The notes: generated by a model not told the origin, from the letters alone. DNA of 64,000 nucleotides from Gammaproteobacteria bacterium (GCA_965261165.1 OZ253445.1:973987-1037986); one strand, 5' to 3'. Shown: positions 5,347-44,015, counted from the first letter of the stretch. Translations and numbers: made by a program.

Positions 5347-5800
5347 TCACATACAAATCCGTGATACTACCGGCCTGTATCTCTGCTGAGAAATTAAGTG
5401 TTTCAGAAAAGGTGGGGATGAGGATGAATCGTTAGACTTATATCTTCCCAATCTGCGCCCATTTCTAATGCTAATACGGCTTCGGCGATTAGTCCCCCCC
5501 CCCCCCCGCATTTGGACCAACAATACCTGCGTCAAGTATTCGCTGATTGTCTGGATTCCATAATATTATTGTCAACCCTTCATCACGACCAATACTCAAG
5601 GCACGGCCACTGGCGGCCCAGGGGGAAACAGATTTTTCATATTTAATATGAGCTTTTCTTAGCATCGGTTTCTGCCAATTCCATCCATGCGAGCTCAGGA
5701 TCAGGGTACGCAGCTGAGGGAATAGTTAAGGCATCAAAAGATAAACCTACCCCAGTTTGACTCACCCTTTCTAAAAGGGACGGTTGTCCTAGAGGAGAGT
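5347..5800 (-). pseudogene. lpd: Dihydrolipoamide-dehydrogenase-like (pyridine nucleotide-disulfide oxidoreductase) C-terminal pseudogene with at least three homopolymer frameshifts
   Basis: Across three frames it reads ...FDALTIPSAAYPDPELAWMELAETDAKK / KAHIKYEKSVSPWAASGRALSIG..ILDAGIVGPNAG / LIAEAVLALEMGADWEDISLTIHPHP / TFSETLNFSAEIQAGSITDL. This is collinear with the Lpd C-terminus (FPWAASGRA...IVGxNGGEL..LAIEMG.DAEDIALTIHAHPTL...GSITDL). Frameshifts sit at the A4, C15 and G4 runs; the N-terminus is replaced by an IS3 fragment. Confidence 0.6.
5488..5502 (+). repeat. Poly-C tract, 15 nt
   Basis: agtccccccccccccccccgcatt; lies inside the lpd-like pseudogene at a frameshift point. Confidence 0.8.
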
Positions 5801-5821: not shown

Positions 5822-5975
5822 AAAGAGATTTAAGTGCGGAATTTAAACAAGAAGCGGTGAGATTACTGGAGCAAGGCGATAAAGAAGTCTCGCAGTTAGC
5901 CAGAGAACCGGGTGTTGCTGATGATGTTTTGTGCGCTGCCATTGAAGGTGGTGTCTATGGCCTTGACACGTCGTA
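5822..5975 (+). mobile_element. IS3-family transposase OrfA N-terminal fragment (remnant)
   Basis: Translation RDLSAEFKQEAVRLLEQGDKEVSQLAREPGVADDVL matches the IS3 OrfA HTH start (FSAEFKxEAV...); no start codon, stops after 51 aa. Confidence 0.55.
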
Positions 5976-6123
5976 AGCCATCTCGGCTGTAGTCTACTAC
6001 TCTGCCACTTGGTAAGGTCATCTGGGTAATATGGTCGCCATCGTCATAGAGATAACCCATCTTGTAGCGGGTGCCTTGGCTTTCGGTAAAGCTACCGTTG
6101 CTTATGTTGCTATTTAAAACCAA
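5976..6123 (-). pseudogene. Rhs YD-repeat stub (duplicated leader of the Rhs module, truncated by the IS3 fragment)
   Basis: LVLNSNISNGSFTESQGTRYKMGYLYDDGDHITQMTLPSGRVVDYSRDG; 5' region 6060-6200 is about 95% identical to 9262-9402. Confidence 0.6.
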
Positions 6124-8322: not shown

Positions 8323-9324
8323 CTACTGAACCGTCAAGGTACCACCGCCAGCAGCGTCAATTGCATTCCTTGTATTAAGCGAACATATTATGCATCCTTC
8401 AGAAGCCGATTGATTATTCTTTCCATTATCTCCATGCATTAAAAATGAATTTGGATCACGTGTTGATGGGAATTGATTATTACTTGGTGTAGGCATCAAC
8501 GGTAATGACTGCAAACCCGTTTTAGGATTATCAACACCAGTTCCAATATCATAATCTCCACGCGGGATAGGCCCTACATTAGGAACATTTTGTTGTAAAG
8601 GATCGTTTGTTGCTCCTGGTGCACCAGAGTAACACTGCTCATTTACATCCTGATTGCCTGTACTATCGTTGGTACAGATTAACTGACCACTAGCTTGATC
8701 GTAAGAACAGCTAACGGTTAATCCATTTATATCAACTCCAATAATTGGATTTTGATTCACATACCCATAAGTATTCATCCCGCCAATAATACCAATCGGA
8801 TCACTGGTAATATACCTGCCTAACTCAGGATCATAATATCTAAAGTGGTTGTAATGCAGATTAGTCTCCGCATCATAGTATTGTCCAGGAAAGCGAAGGT
8901 TGACACTGACACTGCCTGATGCTGGGGTATTCCCAAACGCCTCACCTTCCCAGCGCCAGATGACTTTACGTGTTGCATCGGTGGCGAGTCGGTTGGTCAG
9001 CAAATGGTCGGTGTGGAGGTAGATGATGCCTTCTGAGGGCATCCCTGCCTGTACAGGCATGCTGGCATCGATCTGTGCCACTGGATGCAGGCCTTGTTGC
9101 CAGATGTAATCTTTGATCAAGGCACCGGTCTCGGTGGTCTCGGTGATGAGATAACCCCGTTGGTCATAGTGATAGATGGTAATACTGTCTATGCTGATGC
9201 CATCACCTTGATAGACAGTCTTTCTGGTTCTCTGTCCGCTATCGTTATAGAGATAACTCATCTTGCAGCGGGTGCCTTGGCTTTCGGTAAAGCTACCGTT
9301 GCTTATGTTGCTATTTAAAACCAA
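8323..9324 (-). CDS. Orphan Rhs C-terminal module: YD-repeat core tail + toxin domain with YkuD/L,D-transpeptidase-like motif
   Basis: YD repeats, then DPIGIIGGMNTYGYVNQNP, then C-terminal domain containing FLMHGDNGKNNQSASEGCIIC, which resembles the L,D-transpeptidase catalytic HG...S.GC(I/V) signature; TTG start; no N-terminal Rhs portion. Confidence 0.65.
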   Translation of the reverse strand: MVLNSNISNGSFTESQGTRCKMSYLYNDSGQRTRKTVYQGDGISIDSITIYHYDQRGYLITETTETGALIKDYIWQQGLHPVAQIDASMPVQAGMPSEGIIYLHTDHLLTNRLATDATRKVIWRWEGEAFGNTPASGSVSVNLRFPGQYYDAETNLHYNHFRYYDPELGRYITSDPIGIIGGMNTYGYVNQNPIIGVDINGLTVSCSYDQASGQLICTNDSTGNQDVNEQCYSGAPGATNDPLQQNVPNVGPIPRGDYDIGTGVDNPKTGLQSLPLMPTPSNNQFPSTRDPNSFLMHGDNGKNNQSASEGCIICSLNTRNAIDAAGGGTLTVQ

Positions 9325-10478: not shown

Positions 10479-10841
10479 ATGAGAATGCGCATAGGGGTAG
10501 TGGGTTTGTTGCACAGTCTCTTGGCTGGAGTCACGCTCGAAGACTTACCTTATGAAAAATTCATCAAACTTTATGACAAACCAAGCACGCTATTTTATTT
10601 AGATCCGCCCTACTATCATTCGGAATCATGCTACGGTGCTAGCTTATTCAGCAGAGAAGACTTCATGCACATCAGAGATATGCTTAGCGAGATAAAAGGG
10701 CGTTTCATCTTGTCGCTCAACGATGTTCCGGAAATACGCAAACTATATAAAGACTTCAATATTGAGATAGTCGAGACTAGATACACAATCAATGTAAAGG
10801 GGAAATCCCCAAAAAGAAACGAACTTCTCATCTCGAACTAA
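10479..10841 (+). pseudogene. Dam-type N6-adenine DNA methyltransferase, C-terminal half only
   Basis: FYLDPPYY (DPPY motif IV) and downstream region collinear with the E. coli Dam C-terminus; SAM-binding N-terminal half absent or frameshifted upstream. Confidence 0.55.
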
Positions 10842-23859: not shown

Positions 23860-24080
23860 ATTTAGGCGGGTATCAACCGCAGTGTCGCTACAAACCTCAG
23901 AACTTGAACCGTGAGTTCAAGTGGGAAGTAATCATGACATATCAGGCTCCCCACGAATGGATGTGCACACAACGTCAAAAATCAGATTCCCTTAGTAGTA
24001 TAGATAGGCTCAAGTCACCACCAGCCTGCTCACGAACACCGCAGAAAATACCCTAAACTGCTTGTCGCTACTCCAATTCG
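23860..24080 (-). ncRNA. ssrS: Candidate 6S RNA
   Basis: About 220-nt non-coding gap immediately downstream of zapA on the same strand, which is the conserved ssrS position. The minus-strand RNA ends with ...CUUGAACUCACGGUUCAAG... resembling the E. coli 6S 3' hairpin CCUUGAACCAAGGGUUCAAGG. Its central part GCGGUGUUCGUGAGCAGGCUGGUGG resembles E. coli GCGGUUGGUGAGCAUGCUCGG. Confidence 0.45.
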
Positions 24081-36000: not shown

Positions 36001-36319
36001 TCAGAAAAGCACGAAAATCTAAAATCCCGTAGGGATGATGCCTTTGTAGTCAGATAAATAATCACAGCCCTAAGCTCCGTAGGAGCGACATAATATCTCT
36101 GTGGTCTCGACTTCTGTTCCAGATTCAGTTCTACCTCCTGCATCCATGCAGTCGTCTGTGTCAAAATATTTTCGTCATTATCTCCTCTGTTACTACCCCT
36201 CTGAAGAAGTCAAAAAAGCATTTTAGCTTTGGGCTAACAGCTAATCTGCCTCCATTGACAAATATGGTCAGACATTATACCTTTGCCGACCAGTTGCATC
36301 AGGTCTCTGAGCATTTTTT

Positions 36320-36480
36320 GCTACAGAGTTAAACGGGAAGTCGGTGCGTATTTATGCAATTCCGACACTGCCCCCGCAACGGTAAATAAGTAAAGGCTGA
36401 TTATTCATGCCACTGTGTCTGAGGTGTACATGACATGGGAAGGCGATCAACCTACTGGAATTAATATCTTGCAGTACTTA
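36320..36480 (+). promoter_or_regulatory. Cobalamin (AdoCbl) riboswitch in the btuB leader
   Basis: gttaaacgggaagtcggtgcg...aattccgacactgcccccgcaacggtaa...catgccactgtgtctgag contains the conserved GGGAAG..GGUG, AAUUCC and B12-box GCCACUG elements. Confidence 0.6.
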
Positions 36481-36640
36481 TGAGTCCGGAGACCGACCTT
36501 TTGCCAGAACCATATCGCGGTGGGCGATGGCGGCGGTTTGGTAGGTCAATTTTTCAACCTTTTCCGCACAAATCCCTTCAGCGATATACCGTTTAATTTA
36601 TCGATCCCGGGCGGGTATCGGGTATTAGGGAGTCGTTTTC

Positions 36641-38566
36641 ATGTTACGTAGATTACTTACTTTTAGTTTTTTTCTTATTTCTTTTTCAGTACTATCAGAA
36701 CCAAATACTTCTTATCCTGATGATTTGATTGTTACAGGTTCACATACAGCCATCACTATCGATGAAATCGGTAGTTCTTATACAGTTATTACCGCGGAGC
36801 AGATAAAACAGCAGCAGGCTGTCCTAGTTTCTGATTTATTACGAGATGTCCCTGGTTTTGCTGTCAGTCGTAGTGGCGTGGTAGGAGGCCAGATACAAAT
36901 TAGGGTGCGTGGTGCAGAAGCCAATCAGTTGCTGATACTGATTGATGATGTGGAGGCCAATGATATTGCTGGAGGTGATGAATTTAATTTTGCACATTTA
37001 GTAACGAACAATATTGAACGGATTGAAATTATCCGTGGCCCACAAAGTGCGCTCTATGGTAGCGATGCACTCGTAGGTGTGGTGAATATTATCACCAAAA
37101 AAGGCAGTGGAACGACAACACTTTCAAGTTATGCCGAAAGTGGTTCTTTCGGTACTTTTAACGGTGGCGGGAGTATTTCAGGAAGCGGGAAGCGTTATCA
37201 CTATAATTTACAAGGTTCATATTTAAGCACAGCCGGGAATAATATCGCTCCTGTAGGCAGTGAAGATGATGGTTATGATAATAGAACGATCTCATTTGCG
37301 GCAGGCTCAACTCCGCTTGATAATCTGAAGCTCGATATTACTGGTAGACATACGGAGGCTGATAGTGAAACTGATACTCAGGATTTTGTCATGACGGGAT
37401 TTGCCGTTGATGCCGATGAAGAAACTCAGGTAAGTCAGGATTATTTAAGGGGGCAAGCAACGTTTGGCTTATTCAAGCAGGATTGGCAGCACACAGTAAG
37501 TGCTGCGATTACCAGTACGGAGAATGATAATTTTGTCTCTGGTATTGAGTCGGCTAGCACTCAAGGCAAGAAATTCCGGTTCGACTACAAAACTAATTTT
37601 TATTTTGGTACAAAAGCCTTTGTAAATGCATCACATGTTTTAACCTTTGGAATTGACCATGAAAAAGATTTTTTTACACAAAGAGGCGCAATTATTTTCG
37701 GCAATCCAAATCAGGAGCAAACTGCAAAAACGATGGGGGTTGTTGCGGGTTATCGTGTGAATTTATGGAAACAATTATTTTTATCCAGCAGTGTGCGGCA
37801 CGATAATAATTCTGAATTTAAAGATGCAACTACCTATCGTGTGACGGCAGCTTATAAAATCTCTGATTTGGGAACTCGTATTCATGGTAGTTATGGGACG
37901 GGTGTCAAGCGCCCTACCTTTACAGAAAGATTTGGTTTCTTCCCTAGTAGGTTTGTTGGTAACCCTAGCCTGAAACCAGAAAGATCCAGAGCGTGGGATG
38001 TGGGGGTGGAGCAGGATATATGGAATAGCTGGGCAAATATTGGTCTGATTTATTTTCACTCAAGGCTTGAAGATGAAATAATGACAATGTTTGGTTTTCC
38101 AACATCAACTGCCGAAAACCTTGGCGGCATCAGTAAACGTCAGGGTATCGAAATCAAAGCAGATGCAGGACTCACAGATAATTTGAACATATCTGCGGCA
38201 TACACATGGCTGGATGCGAAACAACCTGATGCAAGGGGCGCACAAATTTTTGAGGTGCGTCGTCCGAGGAATACTGCCAATATCAATCTGAATTATGCTT
38301 TTCCGAATGATCGTGCCAATGCAAATTTAAATATCAGCCATACAGGTACACAAAAAGATTCAAATTTTGGGACATTCCCAGCTACCGTTGTAGATTTGGG
38401 AAGCTATACACTGATTAATTTGGCTGTTTCTTATCGTGTTAATAAAAACATGAATATCTATGCCAGAGCTGAGAATTTACTGGATAAGGATTATGTCGAT
38501 GTTTTCGGTTTTCAAACGCCTGGAATAGGCGGCATTGTCGGTCTGAATATGACGTTCCAACCTTAA
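36641..38566 (+). CDS. btuB: TonB-dependent outer-membrane cobalamin receptor
   Basis: 641 aa; signal peptide, TonB box (DDLIVTG), plug and 22-strand barrel, terminal ...NMTFQP aromatic end; riboswitch upstream. Confidence 0.8.
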   Translation: MLRRLLTFSFFLISFSVLSEPNTSYPDDLIVTGSHTAITIDEIGSSYTVITAEQIKQQQAVLVSDLLRDVPGFAVSRSGVVGGQIQIRVRGAEANQLLILIDDVEANDIAGGDEFNFAHLVTNNIERIEIIRGPQSALYGSDALVGVVNIITKKGSGTTTLSSYAESGSFGTFNGGGSISGSGKRYHYNLQGSYLSTAGNNIAPVGSEDDGYDNRTISFAAGSTPLDNLKLDITGRHTEADSETDTQDFVMTGFAVDADEETQVSQDYLRGQATFGLFKQDWQHTVSAAITSTENDNFVSGIESASTQGKKFRFDYKTNFYFGTKAFVNASHVLTFGIDHEKDFFTQRGAIIFGNPNQEQTAKTMGVVAGYRVNLWKQLFLSSSVRHDNNSEFKDATTYRVTAAYKISDLGTRIHGSYGTGVKRPTFTERFGFFPSRFVGNPSLKPERSRAWDVGVEQDIWNSWANIGLIYFHSRLEDEIMTMFGFPTSTAENLGGISKRQGIEIKADAGLTDNLNISAAYTWLDAKQPDARGAQIFEVRRPRNTANINLNYAFPNDRANANLNISHTGTQKDSNFGTFPATVVDLGSYTLINLAVSYRVNKNMNIYARAENLLDKDYVDVFGFQTPGIGGIVGLNMTFQP

Positions 38567-38580
38567 AGAGGATTATTGCC

Positions 38581-39102
38581 ATGAAAAAGCGAAACCTGAT
38601 TACGAGTTATCTGTTAATTTTATTGGTGGCATTTTCACGACTTGCACCACACCCACTTGGGTTCACACCTATCGGTGCATTGGGTTTGTTCTCAGGTGCC
38701 TATATGAATAATCGATGGTCGTGGGCTGTTCCTGCTATTGCATTATTCATTGGTGATGTGATAACTGGTCTTTACAATTCATTAATTATGACTTCCGTTT
38801 ATTTCGGCTTCGTTCTTTCTTCCTGTATTGGTAGAGCATTACTCGGCAAAAAGCGTAGTTTTGTTCGAATAGGTACGGCTATTTTTGTTTCCGCTTTGAT
38901 ATTTTTTATCGTGTCCAACACAAGTTCCTGGTGGGTTTATTATCCACACACTCTTGATGGACTGTCATTATGTTACATTAACGGGATTCCTTATTTCGGT
39001 AGGGCAATATTAGCGGATACCTTCTATTGCGCCATACTATTTGGTGGGTATGAATATTCTCAACGCTGTTCATTACGTAGCTTGGGTGCAACAACAAATT
39101 GA
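38581..39102 (+). CDS. Small 6-TM membrane protein, candidate BtuM-like (ECF-S-type) cobalamin uptake component
   Basis: 173 aa, about 6 TM helices, conserved Cys (SSCIG); co-transcribed position 15 nt after btuB; no btuC/btuD in the window. Confidence 0.35.
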   Translation: MKKRNLITSYLLILLVAFSRLAPHPLGFTPIGALGLFSGAYMNNRWSWAVPAIALFIGDVITGLYNSLIMTSVYFGFVLSSCIGRALLGKKRSFVRIGTAIFVSALIFFIVSNTSSWWVYYPHTLDGLSLCYINGIPYFGRAILADTFYCAILFGGYEYSQRCSLRSLGATTN

Positions 39103-39300
39103 AAAGCGCCAACGTGTGATTTTGTCATGGAGTTGCGGCAAAGATTCTGCGTGGGTATTACATGGATTGTAGCAATAAGGTGAAGCATGAGGTTATCGGT
39201 TTGTTGACGATATTTAATGAAGAGTTTGGTCGTTCAACAATGCCATGGTGTCAGGCGGGAGCTTGTCGATCCTTGTGGGGAGAATATGGAGAGTTTCATG
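39103..39300 (+). pseudogene. Remnant of a PP-loop ATPase (MJ0570/Dph6-like, DUF71) gene
   Basis: Frame fragments RQRVILSWSCGKDSAWVLHGL (SGGKDS-like PP-loop), HEVIGLLTIFNEEFGRSTMPW and (M)HGVRRELVD (RVSMHGVRxxLL motif) lie in three different frames. Confidence 0.4.
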
Positions 39301-39413
39301 CCTTTGCCTAGGATGGCTCCATGCTTAAACAGTCGATACATATTCAGTCAGGAGCAACGGCAGAATAGAGAGGGTTTTGTTTTTATAGATATTTTTCTGA
39401 AAGAAGAATTGCA

Positions 39414-40337
39414 ATGAGGATTGTTTCACTTTTACCCAGCGCTACCGAAATCATTTGTTCTCTAGGTCTGCGAGAATATCTGGTAGGAGTGACGCATGAG
39501 TGTGATTATCCTGTAGATGTTATAGGTTTGCCGATTGTAACAAAAAGTGCGATCCCTCATGACGCTTCGAGCATTGAGATTGATCATCTGGTACGCAGTC
39601 AACTGGAAACAACTACGGCGCTGTATTCTCTCAATGTGGAATTACTGGAAGAGTTGCAGGCAGACATCATGGTCACTCAGGCGTTATGTGAGGTATGTGC
39701 GGTTGCAGAGGCGGAAATAGAGGAAATAATCTGTCAATTATCAAATCAACCTCGTGTGGTGAATCTGGAGCCCATGTGTCTACAAGATGTATTTGATACT
39801 TTATTATTACTGGGGAAAGAAACTGGGCAAGAGGCAATTTCTGTCAATGTTGTTGATACATTAAATGCACGGGTTGAAAGGGTTCGTGCGCTCACCGAAA
39901 CCCGCATTAAAAAAGGGCAATATCCAAAGGCTGTCTTTCTTGAATGGGTAGATCCACCCTTTAATGCAGGGCACTGGACGCCTGAGTTAATTGAAATGGC
40001 TGGCGGCATAGATTGCTTGGGCAACAAGCACCAACCATCAGAGACAACTCTATGGGAGCGTATTATCGAAGCTCAGCCTGATGTAATGTTTGTCGCTTGC
40101 TGTGGCTTTTCTCTGGAAAGGGCGCTGGAAGATTTGCCGATACTACAGGCAAATGTAGGTTGGGGTGATTTGCCTTGCGTCAGGAATAAGCGAGTCTATT
40201 TTTCTGATGGCAATTCCTATTTTAATCGGCCGGGACCACGTCTAGTGGATAGTCTGGAGATAATTGCTAATGCATTGCATCCTGATGTACATATACTTGG
40301 TTTAGATCTTCCGGCTGCTGTCAGGGTTTTGAATTGA
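39414..40337 (+). CDS. BtuF-like cobalamin-binding protein (TroA-fold) without signal peptide
   Basis: 307 aa; begins MRIVSLLPSATEIICSLGL, which is the start of the mature BtuF fold (RVVSLSPSxTE), so no leader peptide. Confidence 0.65.
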   Translation: MRIVSLLPSATEIICSLGLREYLVGVTHECDYPVDVIGLPIVTKSAIPHDASSIEIDHLVRSQLETTTALYSLNVELLEELQADIMVTQALCEVCAVAEAEIEEIICQLSNQPRVVNLEPMCLQDVFDTLLLLGKETGQEAISVNVVDTLNARVERVRALTETRIKKGQYPKAVFLEWVDPPFNAGHWTPELIEMAGGIDCLGNKHQPSETTLWERIIEAQPDVMFVACCGFSLERALEDLPILQANVGWGDLPCVRNKRVYFSDGNSYFNRPGPRLVDSLEIIANALHPDVHILGLDLPAAVRVLN

Positions 40338-40358
40338 TTAGATATAGCGGGCTTACTT

Positions 40359-40913
40359 ATGGGACATAGGCTTTCAAAGATTTATACAAAAACTGGAGAT
40401 GATGGAGCAACAGGTTTGGCCGATGGAAGTCGTATTGATAAAGACAGTACCTGTGTTAATGCGTTTGGTGATATTGATGAGTTAAATACTATATTAGGGC
40501 TTCTAATTGCGAATAACACTGATAAAAGAATTAATGACTATTTATTGGATATACAACATGTTTTATTTGACTTGGGAGGTGAACTTGCCATTCCTTATAG
40601 CGTGACAATTATTGAATCACGTGTTGAATATCTTGAAAAGATTATCGATGAATACAATTCATCTTTACCTCCACTGAAAGAATTTATCCTCCCCGGAGGA
40701 TCTGTTCCTGCGGCAACATGTCATATTGCGCGTGCAGTTTGTCGCCGTGCAGAGCGGCAGCTTGTGAGTTTATCCAGAGAGATTTCAATTAATCAGGTGT
40801 CACTGAAATTTTTGAATCGATTGTCTGATTTATTGTTTGTTTTTGCCAGGGTTCTGGCGCGCAGTAAAGGAGCTGAGGAGATCTACTGGCAGAGTAATCG
40901 AATCAAAATTTAA
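40359..40913 (+). CDS. PduO-type ATP:cob(I)alamin adenosyltransferase
   Basis: 184 aa; N-terminal KIYTKTGDDGATGL signature of the PduO/MMAB family. Confidence 0.85.
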   Translation: MGHRLSKIYTKTGDDGATGLADGSRIDKDSTCVNAFGDIDELNTILGLLIANNTDKRINDYLLDIQHVLFDLGGELAIPYSVTIIESRVEYLEKIIDEYNSSLPPLKEFILPGGSVPAATCHIARAVCRRAERQLVSLSREISINQVSLKFLNRLSDLLFVFARVLARSKGAEEIYWQSNRIKI

Positions 40914-43220: not shown

Positions 43221-44015
43221 CTAACCCAGATGACGTTCCTTAATTTCATCCAGAGTTTTGCAGTCTATACATTGTGATGCTGTGGGGCGTGCCTCAAGTC
43301 GGCGAATACCAATTTCTATTCCACAAATCTCACAGAAGCCATATTCATCAGAATCAAGCATGGAAATTGATTCTTCAATCTTGCTTATGAGCTTACGTTC
43401 TCTATCGCGTGTACGTAATTCCAATGCAAATTCTTCTTCTTGTGATGCGCGATCATTTGGATCTGGAAAATTGGTAGCATCGTCCTGCATGTGATGCACT
43501 GTCCTATCGACTTCCTGCATGAGTTCTGTTTTCCAGGCGAGCAATATCTTTCTGAAATATTCCGTTTGTTCTTTTCCCATATAATCTTCATTCTTCCTTC
43601 TCTGTTTATATGGAGTAATTTTCCTTTTTAGTTTTCCTGTTGTTTTTTTCTTTTTGGCAGGGGTTTTTTTACTTACTTTCTTTTTAGCAACTGATTTCTT
43701 AGCTACCTTTTTGGCCGCCTTCTTTTTGGAGGTTTTCTTTTTGGCAGGGGTTTTTTTACTTACTTTCTTTTTAGCAACTGATTTCTTAGCTACCTTTTTG
43801 GCCACCTTCTTTTTGGAGGTTTTCTTTTTGGCAGGGGTTTTTTTACTTACTTTCTTTTTAGCAACTGATTTCTTAGCTACCTTTTTGGCCACCTTCTTTT
43901 TGGAGGTTTTCTTTTTGGCAGGGGTTTTTTTACTTACTTTCTTTTTAGCAACTGATTTCTTAGCTACCTTTTTGGCCACCTTCTTTTTGGCAGTTGCTTT
44001 TTTCTTGGCAGGCAT
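43221..44015 (-). CDS. dksA: DksA (RNA polymerase-binding transcription factor) with a 125-aa N-terminal Lys/Ala-rich histone-H1-like repeat extension
   Basis: C-terminal 140 aa collinear with E. coli DksA (DRTVHHMQDDATNFPDPNDRASQEEEF...CEICGIEIGIRRLEARPTASQCIDCK); N-terminus is 4 copies of VAKKVAKKSVAKKKVSKKTPAKKKTSKKK. Confidence 0.85.
   Translation of the reverse strand: MPAKKKATAKKKVAKKVAKKSVAKKKVSKKTPAKKKTSKKKVAKKVAKKSVAKKKVSKKTPAKKKTSKKKVAKKVAKKSVAKKKVSKKTPAKKKTSKKKAAKKVAKKSVAKKKVSKKTPAKKKKTTGKLKRKITPYKQRRKNEDYMGKEQTEYFRKILLAWKTELMQEVDRTVHHMQDDATNFPDPNDRASQEEEFALELRTRDRERKLISKIEESISMLDSDEYGFCEICGIEIGIRRLEARPTASQCIDCKTLDEIKERHLG
43651..44010 (-). repeat. Tandem repeat, 87-bp unit x about 4.1 (three near-perfect copies) within dksA
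   Basis: ctttttggcaggggtttttttacttactttctttttagcaactgatttcttagctacctttttggcc(g/a)ccttctttttggaggttttc repeated at 43651, 43738, 43825, 43912. Confidence 0.85.

Follow-up and report, generated by a model that had tools for sequence, protein, structure and literature searches.

A cobalamin riboswitch-controlled operon encoding a DUF6580 candidate corrinoid carrier and a leaderless BtuF-fold protein in a gammaproteobacterium

The stretch of DNA analysed here, referred to throughout as the window, comprises 64,000 nucleotides from a Gammaproteobacteria bacterium (GCA_965261165.1 OZ253445.1:973987-1037986), with positions counted from its first letter. It contains a cobalamin riboswitch and, downstream of it, five collinear elements: a TonB-dependent receptor, a small membrane protein of the DUF6580 family, the remnant of a PP-loop ATPase gene, a BtuF-like protein without an export signal and a PduO-type adenosyltransferase. 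A convergent aspartic-protease gene borders the 3′ end of this operon, which we read as a candidate locus for the salvage of corrinoids. The features are as follows.

36255..36290, + strand: candidate sigma-70 promoter read by eye (TTGACA, about 17 nt, TATACC/ATTATA), just 5′ of the riboswitch
36284..36515, + strand: cobalamin riboswitch aptamer RF00174 (Rfam, 98.6 bits against a gathering threshold of 31.5, E = 2e-23, model positions 1-189)
36516..36640, + strand: expression platform and btuB leader, with a ribosome-binding site (RBS), AGGGAG, at 36627-36632 and a possible anti-RBS, TCCCT, at about 36574
36641..38566, + strand: BtuB-like TonB-dependent outer-membrane receptor, 641 residues, with signal peptide (Plug and TonB_dep_Rec_b-barrel)
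38581..39102, + strand: DUF6580 (PF20221) protein, 173 residues, six helices, candidate inner-membrane corrinoid carrier (Pfam, 150.4 bits)
39104..39417, + strand: pseudogene of a Dph6-like PP-loop ATPase (PF01902), broken by early stop codons and frameshifts and shortened by about 379 nt
39414..40337, + strand: leaderless Cys/His-rich BtuF-fold protein, 307 residues, predicted cytoplasmic corrinoid binder (PF01497, 57 bits)
40359..40913, + strand: PduO-type ATP:cob(I)alamin adenosyltransferase, 184 residues (PF01923, 194 bits; TIGR00636, 200.4 bits against a cut-off of 108.45)

The riboswitch had been placed ahead of btuB at 36320-36480 in a reading made from the sequence alone (the original prediction); the Rfam match agrees with this and is somewhat longer. 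The promoter proposed just upstream was not picked up by a consensus scan. No intrinsic terminator that could serve as the expression platform was found within 36516-36640. Given the lack of a terminator together with a plausible promoter and RBS, the riboswitch probably acts at the level of translation initiation, by analogy with btuB of Escherichia coli. The receptor scores 280 bits against its best NCBIfam family, TonB-B12 (TIGR01779), which is under the 600-bit equivalog cut-off; by sequence, it falls outside the BtuB equivalogs (TIGR01779/NF007926) and can be called only BtuB-like. By function it qualifies as a BtuB, being a TonB-dependent receptor directly under a cobalamin riboswitch. 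At the other end of the operon, the gene that follows the BtuF-like gene scores above the equivalog-domain cut-off of TIGR00636 and is the PduO-type adenosyltransferase that had been expected there.

A locus scan of one genome per GTDB species with a profile of 14 close sequences returned 80 related loci, the neighbouring genes of which were mapped by tblastn in flanks of ±10 kb. The nearest of these loci is 75% identical to the window. Most belong to uncultured Gammaproteobacteria (Pseudohongiella, SAR86, Thiotrichaceae, Halieaceae and ‘Ca. Porisulfidus’), with a few in Armatimonadota, Eisenbacteria and others. A TonB-dependent receptor lies directly upstream of the DUF6580 gene and on the same strand in 53 of the 69 loci with at least 2.5 kb of upstream sequence, and Rfam detects a riboswitch 5′ of the receptor in all but one of 21 loci tested. 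Among the 64 loci whose downstream flank reaches 2.5 kb or more, the BtuF-like gene directly follows DUF6580 in 33 and pduO is found downstream in 31; one or the other is present in 54 and both in ten, and the PP-loop gene is present in 11. The methionine synthase gene metH lies within 10 kb of DUF6580 in 26 of the 80 loci. In several of these relatives metH, often divergent, has an S-adenosylhomocysteine riboswitch at its 5′ end (5376-5455 on the − strand in L004; also L005, L018, L024, L032, L036 and L050), so that the presumed B12 importer and the main client enzyme stand back to back under two different riboswitches. In the window, metH does not adjoin the B12 operon.

The open reading frame (ORF) that begins 14 nt past the btuB stop encodes, as had been noted, a six-helix protein of 173 residues with a conserved cysteine, namely C131. 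Its match to PF20221 spans residues 4-162 (gathering threshold 27 bits), with no other Pfam match at E ≤ 0.01. The family is large, with 6,905 clusters at 50% identity in an exhaustive search with a hidden Markov model (HMM; E ≤ 1e-3), and its proteins already carry the database label ‘DUF6580 family putative transport protein’. An AlphaFold (AF2) model shows six helices with a pLDDT of 90.3. The top matches of this model in the PDB, as found by Foldseek, are 4HUQ_S, BtuM (8OVV and 8C7P), FolT, ThiT and RibU, and the first 14 matches are throughout either BtuM or S-components, the substrate-binding subunits of energy-coupling factor (ECF) transporters, with TM scores of 0.44-0.68. BtuM is among the first three, with TM scores of 0.65-0.68 and a sequence identity of 14%. 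Judged by this model, the DUF6580 protein has the fold of an ECF S-component.

Below the level of the fold, the relationship is distant. Neither phmmer nor a profile of 34 homologs (A1) gave a match to BtuM among all PDB chains (E ≤ 10), and the position of the conserved cysteine also differs, so that membership of the BtuM family was rejected. The earlier description of an ‘ECF-S-type BtuM-like’ carrier therefore holds for the fold and fails for the family, and the HMM comparison suggested at that time points instead, remotely, to CbrT: the single PDB chain matched by the 34-homolog profile is 6FNP_A (E = 2.6e-5, positions 5-157), a 182-residue ‘membrane protein’ chain that we take from its length to be CbrT, and hhalign aligns DUF6580 with CbrT at a probability of 74%. 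CbrT itself matches PF12822 (ECF_trnsprt), to which the DUF6580 protein of the window has no match at E ≤ 0.01.

As CbrT is the sole match of DUF6580 by sequence to a solved structure, the protein could be a conventional S-component that depends, as CbrT does, on EcfT, EcfA and EcfA′ encoded elsewhere. We consider this unlikely. The resemblance to CbrT is distant, at 15% identity, and may amount to shared membership of the superfamily only, and no EcfT- or EcfA-like genes were found in the 64-kb window or within 10 kb on either side of the 80 related loci. ECF modules are also uncommon in Gammaproteobacteria (Rodionov, 2009), and the hosts of BtuM are not known to have them.

The near-invariant residues of DUF6580 are R20, H24, P51, D59, G63, Y74, N113, W117, Y121, C131 and P137. 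The MKKRN N-terminus and the GKKRS loop, read with the positive-inside rule and the helix map of the model, suggest an N-in topology. Under this topology, the conserved residues occupy loops 1 and 5, the outer ends of helices 3 and 5 and the beginning of helix 6. These positions are on the predicted periplasmic side and coincide in the model with those where S-components bind their substrates. C131, at the outer end of helix 6, is conserved in at least 90% of sequences; the other cysteine, C82, is not conserved. The cobalt-ligating Cys80 of BtuM_Td sits in loop 3, and this loop reads G-F-Y-N (G63-x-Y65-N) in DUF6580, with no cysteine; C131 is therefore not the cysteine of BtuM.

The absence of btuCD from the locus, also part of the original prediction, was confirmed for the window. 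Screening of its ORFs for Walker A and ABC (ATP-binding cassette) signature motifs and, by hydropathy, for hydrophobic segments, with Pfam run on only some of the ORFs, revealed no FecCD-type permease and no ABC ATPase besides SMC. The BtuF-like gene thus lacks the BtuC and BtuD partners of a canonical system, both within the window and, in the relatives, among its adjoining genes. About 1.3 Mb of flanking sequence contained only three ABC-like ORFs, none of them next to DUF6580 except in L065.

The BtuF-fold protein begins at what would be the start of the mature domain, and its lack of an export signal, which had been claimed from the first reading, could be traced to the gene itself. An in-frame TAG at 39366-39368 lies 48 nt 5′ of the ATG with no start codon between them; therefore no signal peptide can be encoded, and an upstream start or hidden signal peptide was ruled out. 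The same N-terminus recurs in the relatives: in the 36 related loci that carry the gene at full length (the window excluded), the motif MRIVSLLPSATE stands at the start or a few residues from it, and the N-terminal consensus reads (M/I/L/P)-(R/K)-(I/V/L)-(V/I)-(S/T)-LLPSATE. In some relatives the ORF is longer, owing to out-of-frame read-through of the DUF6580 gene, and the additional residues are rich in cysteine and arginine and do not resemble a signal. Residue 2 aligns to the first mature-domain residues of solved BtuF and iron-binding proteins, and the first β-strand of the AF2 model (pLDDT 90) is formed by residues 3-5. The leaderless state is thus a trait of the family.

As regards fold, the protein belongs with the class III binding proteins such as BtuF, matching PF01497 and, in Foldseek, Vibrio cholerae BtuF (E = 1e-14); the nearest structures are the periplasmic heme binders ShuT, RhuT, PhuT and IsdE, which come first, and BtuF. 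It is not a BtuF equivalog, scoring 19 bits against the NF002894 cut-off of 234. The family is large and strongly conserved, members from Gammaproteobacteria, Armatimonadota and Chlorobiota being about 60% identical, and its proteins are named ‘cobalamin-binding protein’ by NCBI. In an Armatimonadota-like contig (L083, 6001-8765), the BtuF-like gene overlaps the start of cobT, with cobS next, an adjacency that connects the family with the assembly of the nucleotide loop in addition to uptake; in L082, also outside the Gammaproteobacteria, it adjoins a riboswitch-btuB-btuF cluster. The best reading is that the BtuF-like protein acts in the cytoplasm, where it would bind or process corrinoids.

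Eleven residues of the BtuF-like family are invariant: C15, H28, C30, D31, C92, C95, H187, W188, C230, R272 and R276. They include five cysteines and two histidines and form the motifs HxCD, CxxC, GHW and CCG. In the model, they lie in loops after β-strands of both lobes, and the fold suggests that they would line the cleft between the lobes. The motifs are missing from the BtuF paralogs with signal peptides that occur in L082 and L065. It is possible, if somewhat doubtful, that the protein is a cytoplasmic metalloprotein instead of a corrinoid chaperone, for example with an iron–sulfur or zinc site built from C30, C92, C95 and C230. Such a protein could work as an enzyme or in redox chemistry, for instance by reducing cob(III)/cob(II)alamin or by decyanating or dealkylating it (as a bacterial analog of CblC), or it could have an unrelated role. 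The invariant residues, their confinement to the leaderless family and an identity across phyla that is unusually high for a binding protein would all fit such a role, and the same SCOP fold (chelatase-like, c.92) includes cluster-binding nitrogenase-type proteins and chelatases. However, the nearest solved folds are those of heme and B12 binders and not of enzymes, and the gene context is always that of corrinoid transport or assembly. The two roles, moreover, are not mutually exclusive.

Taken as a whole, the locus is in our view somewhat better than evenly likely (a probability of roughly 0.55) to be a B12-repressed corrinoid salvage operon that uses a solitary DUF6580 carrier without an ATPase, followed by capture in the cytoplasm. 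The analysis establishes what the genes are, the folds, the riboswitch, the conserved synteny, the leaderless state and the pseudogene; we infer from there which substrate is carried, in which direction, that no ATPase takes part and that one protein hands over to the next, as follows. When cellular cobalamin is low, the riboswitch would permit expression. The BtuB-like receptor would use TonB energy to move a corrinoid into the periplasm, where the DUF6580 protein would bind it in a periplasm-facing pocket lined by H24, D59, N113, W117, Y121 and C131. The carrier may then take it across the inner membrane by toppling, a form of facilitated diffusion that has been proposed for BtuM and that would need no ATPase. 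In the cytoplasm the leaderless BtuF-fold protein would capture the corrinoid and PduO would adenosylate it, such that binding and metabolic trapping could pull uptake forward and supply the B12-dependent enzymes. The Dph6-like PP-loop ATPase would be an accessory member of the module. The alternative B12 import route put forward in the original prediction appears largely right in function, given an operon under a B12 riboswitch and an S-component fold; the assignment of its carrier to BtuM is what has to be given up.

A more elaborate version, which we advance tentatively and regard as rather unlikely, would have the DUF6580 and BtuF-fold proteins form an ‘inside-out’ binding-protein-dependent importer. 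The solitary S-component would topple so that B12 faces the cytoplasm, and the BtuF-like protein, binding with high affinity, would strip B12 from the carrier and hand it to PduO, with binding energy and adenosylation replacing ATP hydrolysis; its Cys/His cleft would possibly remove the upper ligand or reduce the cobalt, and an intact PP-loop ATPase might repair or re-amidate damaged corrinoids.

Several observations weigh against the proposed ATPase-independent salvage by DUF6580. The DUF6580 proteins are known from sequence and predicted structure alone, and their conserved cysteine does not occupy the BtuM position. CbrT, by sequence the nearest protein of known function, did not, when deprived of its ECF module, support B12-dependent growth (PMC5997447), and an ECF module may exist elsewhere in the genome, just as btuCD could be encoded beyond the window. 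About half of the related loci have no adjacent BtuF-like gene, and it has been lost in L006; the BtuF-like protein is therefore not obligatory for transport. Its invariant cysteines and histidines might bind a metal or an iron–sulfur cluster in place of a corrinoid. For some DUF6580 members, in Eisenbacteria and others, no connection with B12 can be seen in the gene neighbourhood. Finally, the genes that flank the DUF6580 operon of L065 (6870-7718 and 12033-13824) encode an ABC ATPase, a BtuF with a lipoprotein signal and a CobD/CbiB-like protein, an arrangement which means that DUF6580 and BtuF(CD) are not strictly exclusive.

This proximity of an ABC ATPase and a canonical BtuF in L065 would also suit a different function, in which BtuCD encoded elsewhere performs the import and DUF6580 either handles another B12-related substrate (cobinamide or another incomplete corrinoid, or the lower ligand or α-ribazole) or is a membrane-bound processing enzyme such as a decyanase or reductase. 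PduO-type adenosylation is an established first step of cobinamide salvage as well, the BtuF-like family adjoins cobT-cobS in L083, and Cys131 could be catalytic, as is Cys80 in BtuM. We nevertheless judge such a function improbable, since the operon and the window contain no cobU, cobS, cobT or cobC, S-component folds are substrate-binding carriers in every characterized case and the DUF6580 gene so regularly follows a TonB-dependent receptor, the cargo of which must still cross the inner membrane.

The solitary carrier favoured here most closely recalls BtuM, which resembles an S-component, stands alone and has its gene together with btuB and btuR, the latter encoding an adenosyltransferase; toppling, facilitated diffusion and metabolic trapping have been proposed for BtuM (PMC6072759). 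The BtuM of Thiobacillus denitrificans (6FFV, 8C7P and 8OVV) shares with DUF6580 a small six-helix S-component fold, the lack of an ECF module nearby and a conserved cysteine near the periplasmic pocket. Both are encoded beside btuB, in Gram-negative bacteria that salvage B12, and each has a cobalamin adenosyltransferase as its partner. However, there is no detectable sequence similarity between the two; DUF6580 is a separate Pfam family with its cysteine in helix 6 rather than loop 3, its partner transferase is of the PduO type where that of BtuM is of the BtuR/CobA type, and its locus contains two accessory genes, one for the leaderless BtuF-like protein and one for the PP-loop ATPase. The hosts also differ, DUF6580 occurring in SAR86, Pseudohongiella, Thiotrichaceae and Halieaceae and BtuM in Xanthomonadaceae, Nitrosomonas and methylotrophs.

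Two further transport systems and one intracellular pathway bear comparison. ECF-CbrT of Lactobacillus delbrueckii (6FNP), the S-component of which is specific for cobalamin and cobinamide, is likewise clustered with pduO (nrdJ-cbrS-cbrT-pduO). Unlike DUF6580, CbrT belongs to PF12822, needs EcfT/A/A′, has no conserved cysteine equivalent to C131 and is found in a Gram-positive host with neither btuB nor a BtuF-like partner. The E. coli BtuB-BtuF-BtuCD system has in common with the present locus a riboswitch-controlled btuB and a component with the BtuF fold (class III binding protein), but neither the BtuC permease nor the BtuD ATPase is encoded in our operon or window, and the BtuF-fold protein here has invariant Cys/His motifs in place of an export signal. 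In humans, CblC (MMACHC) and CblD are cytoplasmic proteins that receive cobalamin, may remove its upper ligand and pass it to an adenosyltransferase or to methionine synthase. The analogy of the BtuF-like protein to CblC and CblD is functional only; the fold is unrelated and no homology is claimed. We predict from these comparisons that the locus represents an uncharacterized and widespread variant of the BtuM-type B12 route, in which a solitary S-component is combined with an adenosyltransferase.

For a large share of the Gram-negative bacteria auxotrophic for B12, the transporter of the inner membrane has yet to be identified (PMC6072759). DUF6580 genes lie firmly within btuB operons under riboswitch control in uncultured, abundant Gammaproteobacteria of marine and fresh waters, among them SAR86, Pseudohongiella, Thiotrichaceae and Halieaceae. 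If DUF6580 is indeed the carrier, it would supply a part that is missing when cross-feeding of B12 in the sea is modelled, and add another route to BtuCD, ECF-CbrT, BtuM and BacA. The leaderless BtuF-fold protein would be a first candidate for a dedicated bacterial protein that escorts or processes cobalamin in the cytoplasm. To our knowledge, such a dedicated role has so far been described mainly for human CblC and CblD. A literature search conducted largely outside subscription journals found no paper on DUF6580 (PF20221) in the context of B12, none on cytoplasmic BtuF-like proteins and none relevant to a link between PP-loop ATPases and B12.

The element between DUF6580 and the BtuF-like gene had been recognized as a three-frame remnant of a Dph6-like PP-loop ATPase gene, and both the fragments and the intact syntenic orthologs bear this out. 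Its fragments, RVILSWSCGKDSAWVLHGL*, EVIGLLTIFNEEFGRS and DPCGE.../GEYGEFHAFA*...REGFVF (asterisks mark stops), lie in three frames; SGGKDS of the PP-loop and, towards the C-terminus, DPCGExGEFHT can still be recognized but are split, and no intact ORF is left. Alignment of the DNA with the intact ortholog in L001 shows that about 379 nt are absent from the window. Intact orthologs of 218-223 residues occupy the same position in L001, L002, L004, L009, L017 and L022, where the stop codon of the PP-loop gene and the BtuF-like start overlap; they score 94 bits against PF01902 (Diphthami_syn_2) and remain well under the cut-off of the archaeal Dph6 equivalog. Decay is also apparent in the closest relatives of the window: the PP-loop gene of L003 (10512-11045) has an in-frame internal deletion, and in L006 the PP-loop gene is gone and all that is left of the BtuF-like gene is the part for residues 1-53 (10525-10683). 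Loss of the accessory part of the module is a trend in this lineage, and the PP-loop ATPase, its gene having decayed to a pseudogene, is therefore dispensable in the lineage of the window.

One database record (P0299, 685 residues) appears to join DUF6580 and the PP-loop ATPase in a single frame; the last 240 residues of the record look like read-through, and the whole fusion may be a read-through artefact. In L053 (10537-12255), an amidotransferase of the asparagine-synthase type comes after DUF6580. Together, the fusion and the amidotransferase hint at an ATP-dependent amidation accompanying DUF6580, which one might speculate to be the re-amidation of corrinoid side chains.

Elsewhere in the window, a 6S (SsrS) RNA gene was located at 23870-24050 on the − strand (Rfam RF00013, 70.9 bits). 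A DksA homolog at 43221-44015 (− strand) carries an N-terminal extension of about 145 residues, consisting of Lys/Ala-rich repeats that match the Pfam family HC2 (histone H1-like nucleoprotein). This combination of DksA with a histone-like tail is an unusual fusion, and similar Lys-rich N-termini are found on the syntenic ORF in L001, L003, L004, L006, L013 and L022. The ORFs at 5896-6123 and 8323-9324, both on the − strand, have near-identical N-termini (MVLNSNISNGSFTESQGTR...), which suggests a duplicated or cassette-like gene family, possibly of the Rhs/YD type.

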